Position numbers and translations under genes: made by a program
UHGV virus genome: UHGV-0351052
From: a virus
Direction: 5' to 3' (one strand)
DNA: 64,000 nucleotides
Shown: positions 682-45,616 of the stretch, piece by piece
Position numbering within the stretch: the stretch's first letter is position 1
How the letters are laid out: each line of letters starts with the position of its first letter
Notes under the pieces: generated by a model
Databases searched by the model: none
What the model was told of the DNA's origin: nothing
What the model saw: the letters and a program-made list of their open reading frames with translations, nothing else

Positions 682-989
682 ATTGCCATTTTCCCTTTAA
701 TTGCTGGATGCGATTCATAATTTTCAAGGATAAAATCTTTCGGTTTCATGTATTCAGTTAACCAGTAAAGCTGTGTTTCGGTGTCACAATTTCCAAACTC
801 TATAGGCCAATCAATTTTAAGTTCACACAGTTCTTTAGGCTCACGACGTAAAATTTCTTTACATTGCTCAGTATGATTCATATAGATGTGAGTATTACCG
901 CCAGAAAATATCAAATCTCCTGGGATAAGATTACACATCTTAGCTACAATATGAACTAACGCAGCGTATGATGCAATATTAAATGGTAG
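678..989 (-). CDS. td: thymidylate synthase, exon 2 (103 codons plus stop)
   Basis: Translation LPFNIASYA...[10 protein letters not shown] is the TS C-terminal half; exon begins CTACCATTT directly after intron 3' end ...CTGAACATAATG, as in T4 td. Confidence 0.9.
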
Positions 990-1435
990 CATTATGTTCA
1001 GATAAGGTCGTTAATCTTACCCCGGAATTATATCCAGCTGCATGTCACCATGCAGATCAGACTATATCTCCAACTTGTTAAAGCAAGTTGTCTATCGTTT
1101 CGAGTCACTTGACCCTACTCCCCAAAGGGATAGTCGTTAGGCATTTATGTAGAACCAATTCCATTTATCAGATTTTACACGATAAGTAACTAATCCAGAC
1201 GAAATTTTAAAATGCCTCTTCCATCTCTTTTCAAAATCTTTAGCACTTCCTACATATACTTTATTGTTTAAAGTATTTTTAATCTGATAAATTCCGCTTT
1301 TCATAAATACCTCTTTAAATATAGAAGTATTTATGAAAGGGCAGTCCTACAATTTAGCACGGGATTGTCTACTAGAGAGGTTCCCCGTTTAGATAGATTA
1401 CAAGTATAAGTCACCTTATACTCAGGCCTCAATTA
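990..1435 (-). ncRNA. group I self-splicing intron of td, short form (446 nt) with internally deleted endonuclease ORF
   Basis: Minus-strand sequence after exon 1 (..TTGGGT) reads TAATTGAGGCCTGAGTATAAGGTGACTTATACTTGTAATCTATCTAAACGGGGAACCTCTCTAGTAGACAATCCCGTGCTAAATTGTAGGACT, matching the remembered T4 td intron 5' end; 3' end matches ...GGGGTAAGATTAACGACCTTATCTGAACATAATG. Confidence 0.8.
1137..1304 (-). pseudogene. I-TevI homing endonuclease remnant (55 codons; N-terminal 33 aa fused in frame to C-terminal 22 aa)
   Basis: Encodes MKSGIYQIKNTLNNKVYVGSAKDFEKRWKRHFK-ISSGLVTYRVKSDKWNWFYINA; T4 I-TevI is 245 aa with these same termini. The GIY-YIG catalytic domain is truncated and the DNA-binding domain is mostly gone. 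Confidence 0.7.
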
Positions 1436-2807
<1,372 letters not shown>

Positions 2808-17108: not shown

Positions 17109-17116
17109 AATAAATA
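17109..17116 (+). promoter_or_regulatory. late-promoter-like AATAAATA upstream of t
   Basis: 7/8 match to TATAAATA, 18 nt upstream of the t ATG, followed by AAAGGAGG ribosome site. Confidence 0.35.
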
Positions 17117-42707: not shown

Positions 42708-43496
<789 letters not shown>

Positions 43497-43568
43497 TCAT
43501 TTATTGCAGCAAAAAACGAATTATACAATTCTTCATCATATGTATTTGATAATACTAACACGTTTTGC

Positions 43569-43576
43569 GATAAATA
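43569..43576 (+). promoter_or_regulatory. late-promoter-like GATAAATA
   Basis: 7/8 match to TATAAATA 20 nt upstream of the plus-strand ORF at 43596. Confidence 0.3.
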
Positions 43577-43595
43577 TTAATTTAAAGGAGGATAC

Positions 43596-43796
43596 ATGGT
43601 ACAAAAATTAATGGCACTTGTTAATGCCATAAAAGGTAATAAGAAACGTATAGCTTTTACTATTTCTGCTATGATAGGAATTTTACTTTGGAATTTTGTT
43701 TTATCGCCAGTTGCTATTGCTCATGGCGTTAGTATTCCAGTAGTTACTCTTGATACATTCGTAGATTTAGCATTTGCTTTAGTTGGGTTAATTTAA
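43596..43796 (+). CDS. small membrane protein (66 aa), plus strand, convergent with gene 61
   Basis: Strong ribosome site AAAGGAGGATACATG; hydrophobic product with two predicted transmembrane segments. Confidence 0.5.
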   Translation: MVQKLMALVNAIKGNKKRIAFTISAMIGILLWNFVLSPVAIAHGVSIPVVTLDTFVDLAFALVGLI

Positions 43797-44821
43797 ATCT
43801 TAGCATATTTAGATAGCCGCATTTTAGCCATCAACCCCTGGGCAATATTATTTTTCATATATTCCATAATTTGTTCAGGGGTTGCACCTTCCTTTCTAAT
43901 CATATCATTAACATCTTTTGATTTCCAGGGAGATTTATCCCAAAACATAACCCTTTCTCCTGCATCAACTAATTTAGTCATTCGTTTAATAGTGTCAGGG
44001 TGACGAGGTTCATTATCTAAGACCCACACTCGTCTATCTTTAAATGGAACAACTTCTAGGTCTAATTGACCACCCGTAATAGCTATACCATTTTCAATAA
44101 AAAGTGAATCTATAGGTCCTTCTAGAACATATACATCACCATCTTTAACTCGTTCGACTCCATAGATTTTTGTTGCCTCAGGATAAGCTTTGATGGTGAT
44201 ATATTTTTGAGGAGCATCTTTCTTTAATGCACGTCCTTGAAAAGACTCAGCTTTTCCATTAGCATTATAAATTGGAATAACAAGACGAGGCTCAGAAATT
44301 TCCTTTTTGTATGTTCCCGGTGCTATGCTATTAACCAATTTAGGCCATTCGGTTGTAAACCAAAGATATTTCCATTTATCCTTTGGAATACAACGAGCTT
44401 TTACGTATTTTATAATTGGATGGTCTTCCGCCAGTTTATCTAATCTAACACATGACGGAAGAGATTTAATTATTTTCTTCTCAGGTTGTTTAGGAAGTTC
44501 TTTAGGTTTTTCTACTGGACGACTTTTACCTTTTTCTTTTCTTATTTCAAAGATATACTCACGATATAAATCAGGTTCAAACTCCTTTAGATATATTCCG
44601 ATTGGTGCATGATAGTTACAGTTATAACAATGAATATTTCCTTCATTATTATCACCATAATACCATCCACGGGCTTTATTTTGGTCGGTTTTTGAATCTC
44701 CACAAACAGGACATCTAAACCGTAATTTAAAAGTTGAACTATTATTTACTTGTGTGAATTTAGGTAAATGAGCTAATGCACGGTATGCGAACTCATTATC
44801 AATCCAAGGTATTGATGACAT
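43793..44821 (-). CDS. 61: DNA primase gp61 (342 aa)
   Basis: Zinc ribbon CPVCGDS...CYNCNYH and TOPRIM region; length equals T4 gp61. Confidence 0.9.
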   Translation of the reverse strand: MSSIPWIDNEFAYRALAHLPKFTQVNNSSTFKLRFRCPVCGDSKTDQNKARGWYYGDNNEGNIHCYNCNYHAPIGIYLKEFEPDLYREYIFEIRKEKGKSRPVEKPKELPKQPEKKIIKSLPSCVRLDKLAEDHPIIKYVKARCIPKDKWKYLWFTTEWPKLVNSIAPGTYKKEISEPRLVIPIYNANGKAESFQGRALKKDAPQKYITIKAYPEATKIYGVERVKDGDVYVLEGPIDSLFIENGIAITGGQLDLEVVPFKDRRVWVLDNEPRHPDTIKRMTKLVDAGERVMFWDKSPWKSKDVNDMIRKEGATPEQIMEYMKNNIAQGLMAKMRLSKYAKI

Positions 44822-44823
44822 TT

Positions 44824-44988
44824 TTACTCTTCTTTTTCTTTAGATTCCTCTTTTTTCTTTTTAGGAATCTGTTCAGGACCTTTATTTACTACAGCACCTG
44901 ATGTTGTTCCAGTAGAGATATTTTCAGGATTACCACCTGAATCTCCAGCAACCATATCTTCTTTGATAAATTCTTTATATGTTTTCAT
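44824..44988 (-). CDS. small hypothetical protein (54 aa; 61.1 position)
   Basis: Manual read: MKTYKEFIKEDMVAGDSGGNPENISTGTTSGAVVNKGPEQIPKKKKEESKEKEE. Confidence 0.4.
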   Translation of the reverse strand: MKTYKEFIKEDMVAGDSGGNPENISTGTTSGAVVNKGPEQIPKKKKEESKEKEE

Positions 44989-44989
44989 A

Positions 44990-45616
44990 TTAACCTCTAT
45001 TCATAAAAGCATTAAAAATTTGGTCATCAATAGAAACATTTACTTTAGACTGTTTTTCAGATGGCAATTCATATCCACATATTACAATTTTATGATCAAT
45101 ATCAAAATACACAGAAGCAATATGATTAATGATGTTTTCAGTAAAGTCTAAATCAACATCAATATCTTTTTGACCACAGCCCAAAGGATAAATAATGCGA
45201 GTAATTCGATTATCTTTAACAAATATTCCACCGACATACTCTGTGCTGCGTTTAAAGTCTACACGCCGACGAAATGAAAAATATTCAGGCTCTTTATGAG
45301 CTCGGCTCATAGGGCACAACGAATAACTAGAATAAGAGATGTCAAATCCTACGCCTTCAATATGAACTAAATTGTCATGATTAAACCAATTATAATCATA
45401 TGCCAAGTCCATTAGATTGTCATATGTAAAAGGCACCGGATTAACATCATTGGTCACAAGCATATAATTAGCAACTGCTATAATTTCATTATTTTTAACG
45501 AATACAAACCGTGATTGATGCGAATGACCTGGACCTGCGTTTTCACGATTAATGATATAACACTGGGCACCTTTATATTTGTACGTGTCTTTACACTTGT
45601 GCATTTGATAAAGCAT
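44990..45616 (-). CDS. hypothetical protein (208 aa; 61.2 position)
   Basis: ORF track. Confidence 0.5.
   Translation of the reverse strand: MLYQMHKCKDTYKYKGAQCYIINRENAGPGHSHQSRFVFVKNNEIIAVANYMLVTNDVNPVPFTYDNLMDLAYDYNWFNHDNLVHIEGVGFDISYSSYSLCPMSRAHKEPEYFSFRRRVDFKRSTEYVGGIFVKDNRITRIIYPLGCGQKDIDVDLDFTENIINHIASVYFDIDHKIVICGYELPSEKQSKVNVSIDDQIFNAFMNRG

Follow-up and report, generated by a model that had tools for sequence, protein, structure and literature searches.

Lysis by bacteriophage T4 is accounted for by the holin gene t together with the endolysin gene e. Holin T is made late and sits in the inner membrane by a single helix, with its N terminus inside and its C terminus outside; RI works by way of a domain in the periplasm, and RIII is a cytoplasmic protein. 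Membrane microproteins such as AcrZ, MgtS, and CydX bind a larger membrane protein by helix-helix contact, and an Asn residue within a membrane helix promotes helix association.

[quoted passage not shown] Among the 50 T4 late sites given in the same source, 32 are perfect, nine have A at −13, and the remaining ones show other single deviations; such variant promoters are used both in vitro and in vivo (PMC2988020). A preprint describing dRNA-seq of T4 reports 150 phage TSSs, 22 of which are antisense (bioRxiv 10.1101/2024.04.04.588121).

The closest described counterpart of the gene analyzed here is dam.1, a name that the T4T record HM137666.1 gives to an ORF between dam and gene 61 (T4Tp032, ADJ39749.1). 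Its ortholog in RB69 is RB69ORF029w (NP_861719.1), and that in VR7 is VR7ORF033w. The T4 reference entries (NC_000866.4 and AF158101.6) show no annotated gene in the dam-61 interval. We analyzed a 64,000-nt stretch of the virus genome UHGV-0351052 (the window) and find that a 66-codon ORF in it is the same gene as these three, at the same site and in the same orientation, with the same signals and neighbors. The ORF is therefore the T-even gene dam.1, already catalogued, belonging to an uncharacterized family, and not peculiar to this phage.

Results

Location and existing annotation of the ORF

The original prediction placed a small hydrophobic plus-strand protein between dam and gene 61, embedded in a minus-strand early region. 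Both points hold: The ORF is there, 66 aa long (Table 1), and from 17792 to 64000 the non-nested ORFs of at least 90 aa in the window ORF list are all on the minus strand. The 66-codon ORF is the sole plus-strand gene in ~46 kb, and the same list contains no minus-strand ORF of at least 30 aa across its body.

Table 1. Features of the dam.1 locus and promoter-type sites elsewhere in the window (positions are those of the window)
Feature	Position	Strand	Description
dam (DNA adenine methyltransferase)	42708..43487	-	Divergent neighbor; name from annotation of matching records
Candidate late-promoter (gp55-type) variant	43569..43576	+	GATAAATA; G for T at −13; ends 19 nt before ATG
Shine-Dalgarno sequence	43584..43591	+	AAAGGAGG; ends 4 nt before ATG
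dam.1-type ORF	43596..43796	+	ATG start, 66 codons; protein MVQKLMALVNAIKGNKKRIAFTISAMIGILLWNFVLSPVAIAHGVSIPVVTLDTFVDLAFALVGLI
Terminator-like hairpin	43611..43630	-	ATGGCATTAACAAGTGCCAT then TAATTTTTGT; within ORF codons 6-12
Stop-codon overlap, 66-codon ORF/gene 61	43793..43796		TTAA; 4 nt shared, convergent
Gene 61 (DNA primase)	43793..44821	-	Convergent neighbor; name from annotation of matching records
Hairpin in 3′ coding part of gene 61	43832..43884	+	14-bp stem, then CACCTTCCTTTCT; 36-88 nt past ORF stop
TATAAATA	7429		Precedes 1289-codon ORF; fits tail-fiber region by T4-map position
TATAAATA	12499		Precedes 216-codon ORF; fits tail-fiber region by T4-map position
TATAAATA	41758	-	Precedes 78-aa soc-like ORF
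AATAAATA	17109		18 nt before ATG of 218-aa holin gene t

What did not survive is the implied novelty. The prediction implied that T4 might have no gene at this position, and a T4 counterpart already known from there was to count against it; T4 encodes the same ORF there (NC_000866 17738..17938, 95.5% identical by tblastn to the T4 records), and the T4T record names it. The copy in the window differs from the T4 ORF by 3-4 residues and in nothing essential.

Existing annotation has much to say about the presence of the gene and little about its product. An identical protein (100%) is annotated in phage vB_EcoM_G8 and others, the ORF is annotated as a hypothetical protein in hundreds of genomes, and ~250 named cluster members are almost all called "hypothetical" or "uncharacterized." In PHROGs, residues 2-66 match the family phrog_2024, "unknown function" (E = 8.1e-31). 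The T6 RefSeq name, "putative head morphogenesis protein," was rejected, since adjacent genes in that record carry plainly wrong transferred names; a soc-sized gene (locus 740..985), for example, bears the name "virion structural protein" and a note reading "similar to ... terminase small subunit."

A time-resolved transcriptome and proteome study of T4 quantified the features of the NC_000866.4 annotation, and the ORF is not among them. Since that annotation is without the ORF, annotation-based omics studies cannot report dam.1. A full-text literature search returned no mention of dam.1 or its accessions in the papers searched, and a search of the ribosome-profiling and small-protein literature returned nothing on T4.

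Conservation and selection

Using the 66-aa peptide as a tblastn query, we found a homolog in 693 phage records, 686 of which cover at least 80% of the query. Identity is at least 80% in 503 of the records (Tequatrovirus) and <60% in the other 190, for which the listed examples are Mosigvirus and Gaprivervirus; identity to annotated orthologs ranges from 100% to 48%. The C-terminal half of gp61 has matches in 502 records at ≥95% identity. Since these Tequatrovirus-grade gp61 matches are set against 503 records with the ORF, essentially every gene 61-bearing Tequatrovirus has it. A profile search returned 114 clusters of 41-73 aa, all from T4-like phages and none credibly named by function, and added T4-like phages of Klebsiella, Salmonella (Gelderlandvirus), and Citrobacter. 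The family was not found at the Karamvirus and Krischvirus loci examined and is thus dispensable for the T4-like life cycle.

The reading frame is unbroken in 16 loci, with ORF lengths of 63-66 codons. Nine representative loci from three genera were chosen from these intact loci (36 pairs), and dN/dS by the Nei-Gojobori method is 0.09-0.49 in every computable pair, with synonymous sites saturated between genera. An alignment of 34 diverse members shows W32, N33, P38, and G44 to be invariant and A40, P48, and G64 to be nearly so; the conserved protein motif can be written W-N-[FY]...P.A..HG...P.

The dam.1 family comprises three subtypes. Type A, which is T4-like, has the pattern AIKGNKKR...WNF...AHG...LDTFVD; type B begins with MGTLFYQIWKL and contains LWNLLVVPIAATQG; and type C begins with MSEVK and contains AWNY...THG. 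In Gaprivervirus genomes, a type A copy has a type B copy directly after it, in tandem. This second copy carries a frameshift or an extension in the VR7 record, is truncated at its N terminus in genome L017, and survives as a remnant in UPEC07. No second copy was found in the window when all six frames were scanned with an HMM. We consider it very probable that the ORF is a real protein-coding gene.

Expression signals

The strong ribosome site and the late-promoter-like element that had been claimed upstream of the ORF were both located (Table 1). All orthologous loci keep GGAGG or AGGAG at 4-8 nt ahead of the ATG. Apart from ATAAATA and the Shine-Dalgarno sequence, no alignment is possible among the upstream regions of the T4/dam, T6, RB69, and VR7 types. 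At all loci examined (T4, T6, OE5505, RB69, VR7, UPEC07, Potts1, Roth67, the metagenomic contig L023, and Melville) except Melville, ATAAATA is found upstream of the orthologous ATG, with −13 occupied by G, A, or C; Melville has only a TATTAAATA-like sequence, without exact ATAAATA.

The base at −13 differs among lineages. T4, the window, the OE5505 type, and L023 have the GATAAATA form; the T6 and RB69 types have the AATAAATA form; the VR7 type, UPEC07, and Potts1 have the CATAAATA form; and Roth67 has both the G and the C forms. The sequence GATCCATA is an altered form of GATAAATA meant to abolish plus-strand RNA. The ATG-proximal motif ends 12-22 nt before the ATG (16-22 in most lineages; 33 in L023). 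The consensus T at −13 occurs in zero of about six independent contexts. Since this base is never T and since Melville is without exact ATAAATA, expression may be weak, and the nonconsensus base may reflect a deliberately weak promoter.

We counted promoter-type sequences over the whole window. NATAAATA is strongly depleted, with 14 sites compared with ~38 expected; TATAAATA is observed five times compared with 10 expected; and VATAAATA is observed nine times compared with 28 expected, all 100 shuffles giving higher counts. The depletion of NATAAATA, together with the exact placement before the Shine-Dalgarno sequence and ATG and the conservation across lineages, makes the site upstream of dam.1 informative. 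Elsewhere in the window, holin gene t has a promoter architecture (AATAAATA, 18 nt, ATG) matching that of the dam.1 ORF.

A T4 late gene depends on gp55, gp33, and gp45, is transcribed only once DNA replication has begun, and is marked by a TATAAATA-type element close to the gene, ~6-7 nt before the transcription start; GATAAATA is such an element with a single deviation, at −13. Because T4 early and middle transcripts are all counter-clockwise (PMC2988020), a clockwise T-even gene can only be late. A list of 31 RB69 late promoters includes none upstream of ORF029w (Nolan et al. 2006). Judging from orientation and motif, we think it likely that the ORF is transcribed late from the GATAAATA promoter.

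Gene order, overlap, and hairpins

The lone plus-strand, tail-to-tail placement beside gene 61 recurs in six genera and is shared by the Jiaodavirus-like phage Roth67, the Gelderlandvirus Melville, Potts1, and a metagenomic contig. The opposite flank varies and may hold dam, gene 56, or an extra ORF; T6, RB69, and VR7 are without dam here and have gene 56 in its position. As had been predicted for this stretch, the stop codons of the ORF and gene 61 overlap; 4 nt are shared, as they are in T4, T6, RB69, OE5505, Melville, and Potts1. Since the stops overlap, the further claim that the transcript is antisense to the 3′ end of the primase mRNA is necessarily true of any complete transcript. The overlap is absent in VR7, where a ~200-nt gap contains the second copy; in Klebsiella phage Roth67, which has an 18-nt gap; and in the metagenomic contig L023, where a 124-aa gene intervenes. 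Overlap with gene 61 is therefore common and not required.

Two hairpins lie around the ORF. The one in the 3′ coding part of gene 61, on the plus strand past the ORF stop, came from folding; a simple terminator scan gave no plus-strand terminator downstream of the ORF. It has a minimum free energy (MFE) of −22 kcal/mol and a z-score of −4.3 relative to dinucleotide shuffles, and relative to synonymous gp61 recodings it scores z = −3.4 (plus strand) and −3.1 (minus strand). RB69 (z = −4.25) and Melville (z = −4.3) also have hairpins at this place, with arms of different sequence. In VR7 the hairpin is weak, in Roth67 it is missing, and no single long hairpin was found in two phages without the ORF. 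The hairpin in the window could be the 3′ end (a terminator or stabilizer) of a late plus-strand transcript, or else a feature of the primase mRNA. The second hairpin, on the minus strand within the ORF, is the sole terminator-like site in 43300..45200, where 0.7 are expected by chance. Its sequence is kept in Tequatrovirus and not in RB69 or VR7; it is a weak indication that the gene 61 transcript possibly ends here.

These observations bear on a different account of the locus, in which the product is chiefly an antisense RNA. The late promoter would fire into the 3′ end of gene 61, with the ORF secondary, and RNA pairing with the primase mRNA or polymerase collision would lead to late shut-down of the 61-dam-56 unit, which is transcribed early and in the middle period. 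[quoted passage not shown] However, purifying selection on the peptide, invariant residues, and a conserved Shine-Dalgarno sequence are unneeded by a noncoding RNA. The overlap, moreover, has been lost in VR7, Roth67, and L023, and conservation of the hairpin, which is ambiguous as to strand, does not extend to VR7 or Roth67.

The comparison with cis-antisense transcripts of convergent overlapping genes points the same way. The locus resembles them in its overlapping stops and in having mRNAs that are complementary at their 3′ ends, but the dam.1 RNA codes for a conserved protein and some lineages are without the overlap, so the conserved overlap free of coding constraint by which a cis-antisense RNA is recognized is not what we observe. 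A purely noncoding role appears unlikely given the protein-level constraint in the alignments, and we regard an RNA as the chief product as improbable. Antisense and protein roles are compatible with each other.

Predicted protein

The reading that we prefer is one in which the protein is the main product. AlphaFold2, given the 34-sequence alignment, predicts helices at residues 2-12, 16-42, and 52-63, with a mean pLDDT of 77. A single segment, residues ~19-41, has strong hydrophobicity in each of the three subtypes; in type A, but in neither B nor C, the last 19 residues are hydrophobic as well. Residues 1-18 of type A include five K/R, and the sole acidic residues, D53 and D57, come after the helix. 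With basic residues before the helix and acidic ones after it, the positive-inside rule predicts an N-in/C-out orientation. For RB69ORF029w, the supplement of Nolan et al. (2006) gives a single TMHMM helix at 21-41, and the same study found no SignalP 3.0 signal peptide. The product is predicted to be a single-pass inner-membrane microprotein with its N terminus inside and a periplasmic tail of ~24 residues. Taken together, the real gene, its late transcription from this promoter, and the membrane prediction make up an account that we hold to be probable.

The invariant Trp-Asn pair is located within the predicted membrane helix. In combination with the conserved stretch at the periplasmic edge, it suggests helix-helix association, either with another copy of the protein or with a membrane partner. 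The pattern P-x-A-x2-[H/Y/Q/N]-G...P...[D/E] at that edge, as read from the alignment, would argue for a specific contact and not for a generic anchor.

In the databases searched, dam.1 is without homology to any characterized family. Pfam and NCBIfam gave no match even at E up to 10, and PADLOC gave none; a profile search of the PDB gave insignificant matches only (E ≥ 0.09); phmmer against 1.84 billion representative proteins returned only family members and repetitive hydrophobic proteins; and the good matches in a BFVD fold search were family members only.

The one functional label that recurs is "Holin," attached in UniProt to the OE5505 ortholog (A0A482MZV5) and present in UniRef and BFVD, and it raises the question of whether dam.1 is a holin- or pinholin-like membrane-lesion protein. 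In favor of this, the protein is small, has a transmembrane (TM) helix, and is apparently late, and the holin gene t of this window has the same promoter and Shine-Dalgarno architecture. Yet there are no matches to Pfam or NCBIfam holin families at E up to 10, the other ~250 cluster members are all hypothetical or uncharacterized by name, and the sole good holin-labeled match in BFVD (E = 2.9e-07) is the OE5505 member of the family itself, another holin entry scoring E = 6.4. The C terminus is hydrophobic (…AFALVGLI), with no charged tail and no basic residues, and only one segment confidently spans the membrane across subfamilies. The window, furthermore, already contains the T-even holin gene t, and dam.1 is not linked to endolysin. 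A holin would be known by family homology and a charged hydrophilic C-terminal tail, and here one TM helix is present without either. We conclude that the lone label on the OE5505 member is unsupported and that a membrane-lesion function is very unlikely.

Rated slightly lower still is a pre-peptide, in which residues 1-42 would be a long signal sequence cut by signal peptidase I after A-I-A (40-42). Release of a 24-residue hydrophobic peptide, HGVSIPVVTLDTFVDLAFALVGLI, to the periplasm or outer leaflet by this cut is just as hard to credit. The alignments do show a conserved P-x-A-x-[A/T/S] followed by [H/Y/Q/N]-G, and the nearly invariant A40 at −3, the small residue at −1, and the proline at −5 fit the −3/−1 rule. 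Against it, a hydrophobic core of ~20-23 residues, as here, is what uncleaved signal anchors typically have, the W-N pair that is invariant within the segment implies that the helix itself is functional, and SignalP 3.0 was negative for RB69ORF029w (Nolan et al. 2006).

A chance ORF without function, to which the short length, the intergenic position, the missing annotation in the T4 reference records, and the absence from some T4-like genera might point, was rejected and is effectively refuted by the comparative data: The ORF is intact in ~690 genomes of at least six genera, with dN/dS well below 1, invariant amino-acid motifs, and a conserved Shine-Dalgarno sequence and promoter.

Discussion

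For the membrane microprotein favored above, a course of action can be proposed. A gp55-type late promoter belonging to the gene itself, with −13 occupied by G, A, or C, would drive clockwise transcription, and translation would start from a strong Shine-Dalgarno site. The protein would then be placed with its basic N terminus in the cytoplasm, a TM helix at ~19-42, and ~24 C-terminal residues in the periplasm, and this late microprotein would act on a partner via its Asn-containing membrane helix. The likeliest arena would be late envelope events, that is, lysis timing or lysis inhibition through holin T. Topology, motifs, and analogy are the basis for supposing that dam.1 acts in lysis or envelope control, and we put this forward tentatively, as a possibility with the odds against it.

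The analogies differ in how far they reach. The predicted topology of dam.1 is that of holin T (N-in/C-out, with a single helix), and the t gene in the same window has the same kind of variant promoter. An HMM scan of the window, however, found no sequence similarity between the two, and T is a protein of 218 aa with a large periplasmic domain. With AcrZ, MgtS, and CydX, dam.1 shares a size of 60-70 aa, one TM helix, and a conserved polar Asn in the helix; it has no homology to them and, unlike them, is phage-encoded and apparently expressed late.

Because the dam.1 stop overlaps that of gene 61, the dam.1 mRNA is antisense to the 3′ end of the primase mRNA, and an effect on the primase mRNA may be a secondary role. 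The two roles can be joined in a dual-function late module, in which the protein would be a third regulator of holin T (or of another envelope machine), acting through its membrane helix, and the RNA would act against primase and the early region. The mRNA would end at the hairpin within the primase coding sequence and help to switch off primase late. We think such a module improbable, somewhat more so than an RNA as the chief product. If it is real, the absence of the ORF from the reference annotation would be the reason that T4 genetics and omics have missed it.

In its position, dam.1 is one of very few clockwise genes in a long counter-clockwise early region, and its transcript must collide or pair with the primase mRNA. 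In other respects it is an ordinary catalogued hypothetical-protein gene, noteworthy chiefly for its omission from the T4 reference annotation: T4 is among the best-studied viruses, yet this conserved gene is missing there. Adding the ORF to the annotation would allow existing data sets to be re-read at no cost. As a conserved and apparently late membrane microprotein, dam.1 would be a reasonable candidate for details of lysis timing, lysis inhibition, and envelope remodeling that are so far unexplained.

Annotation of the small ORF in related phages

In the T6 record (NC_054907.1, 2001..2201), ATT stands at the site of the first ATG of the small dam.1 family ORF in other phages, and because of this the RefSeq gene start falls at Met6, distant from the Shine-Dalgarno sequence (SD). 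We rejected the product name given there, "putative head morphogenesis protein"; names in this region have clearly been mis-transferred, as also for a soc-sized T6 gene called "virion structural protein" and noted as similar to the terminase small subunit. The sole dam.1 family member with a functional name is the OE5505 ortholog (UniProt A0A482MZV5, "Holin"), a label without support from homology to any holin family, which is found in the BFVD fold library too.

Variation around the small ORF

By sequence comparison, the interval between dam and the small ORF is a variable spot. An insertion of ~540 bp, with an extra 186-aa minus-strand ORF, occurs here in many Tequatrovirus genomes; it leaves the small ORF's promoter-proximal sequence unaltered. 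On the minus strand of RB69, a middle promoter, Pm:16038, has been predicted (Nolan et al. 2006). It presumably serves gene 56. This predicted promoter overlaps the plus-strand AATAAATA that lies 5′ of ORF029w, the RB69 small ORF; divergent promoters would therefore use the same few bases in this phage.

Immediately 3′ of the first copy, Gaprivervirus genomes carry a divergent tandem second copy of type B, the subfamily that starts MGTLFYQIWKL (followed further on by LWNLLVVPIAATQG). Its condition differs among genomes: in the VR7 record it is frameshifted or runs on into gene 61, in L017 part of the N-terminus is missing, and in UPEC07 only a remnant is left. The copy recovered from Klebsiella phages, for example Potts1 and Marfa, is of type B.

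Coordinates of features in the window and in compared phage loci (own coordinates)
Feature	Sequence	Position	Strand	Remarks
AATAAATA	Window	17109..17116	+	5′ of holin gene t (ATG 17135)
Terminator-like hairpin, ATGGCATTAACAAGTGCCAT then TAATTTTTGT	Window	43611..43630	-	Within codons 6-12 of small ORF
Hairpin, then CACCTTCCTTTCT	Window	43832..43884	+	Within gene 61; 14-bp stem, two G.U pairs on plus strand
Insertion with extra minus-strand ORF	OE5505	1341..1901		Also seen as two-piece matches of other genomes
Predicted Pm:16038	RB69, NC_004928.1	15998..16038	-	
AATAAATA	RB69, NC_004928.1	16032..16039	+	5′ of ORF029w
Second copy	VR7	2201..2470		
Second copy	L013, L015	about 1701..1898		
Second copy	L017	1735..1896		
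Second copy	L018	2000..2179		

Hairpins

The terminator-like hairpin within the small ORF, conserved solely within Tequatrovirus, is a candidate site at which the gene 61 transcript could end ahead of dam. The hairpin inside gene 61 exceeds in stability both dinucleotide-shuffled sequences (z = -4.3) and gp61 sequences recoded synonymously (z = -3.4 on the plus strand, -3.1 on the minus strand). RB69 and Melville have hairpins of different sequence at the matching position.

Elsewhere in the window, a palindrome (about 1302..1335, with CATAAATA on both strands) lies 5′ of an I-TevI-like GIY-YIG minus-strand ORF of just 55 aa (MKSGIYQIKNTLNNKVYVGSAKDFEKRWKRHFK joined to ISSGLVT...), starting near 1304. 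Compared with I-TevI, this ORF appears to have undergone an internal deletion, leaving the N-terminal part fused directly to the last residues of the C-terminus.

Late-promoter variants

In none of about six independent lineages does the small ORF promoter have T at -13, as in the T4 late consensus. Holin gene t resembles the small ORF in its promoter/SD/ATG architecture, with AATAAATA in place of TATAAATA 18 nt upstream of the ATG, and a strong SD. Over both strands of the whole window the late-promoter core is strongly depleted: TATAAATA occurs five times (10 expected) and VATAAATA nine times (28 expected), with all 100 of 100 shuffles giving higher counts for the latter. Judged by this deficit of VATAAATA, variant octamers too seem to be under negative selection wherever they are unused.
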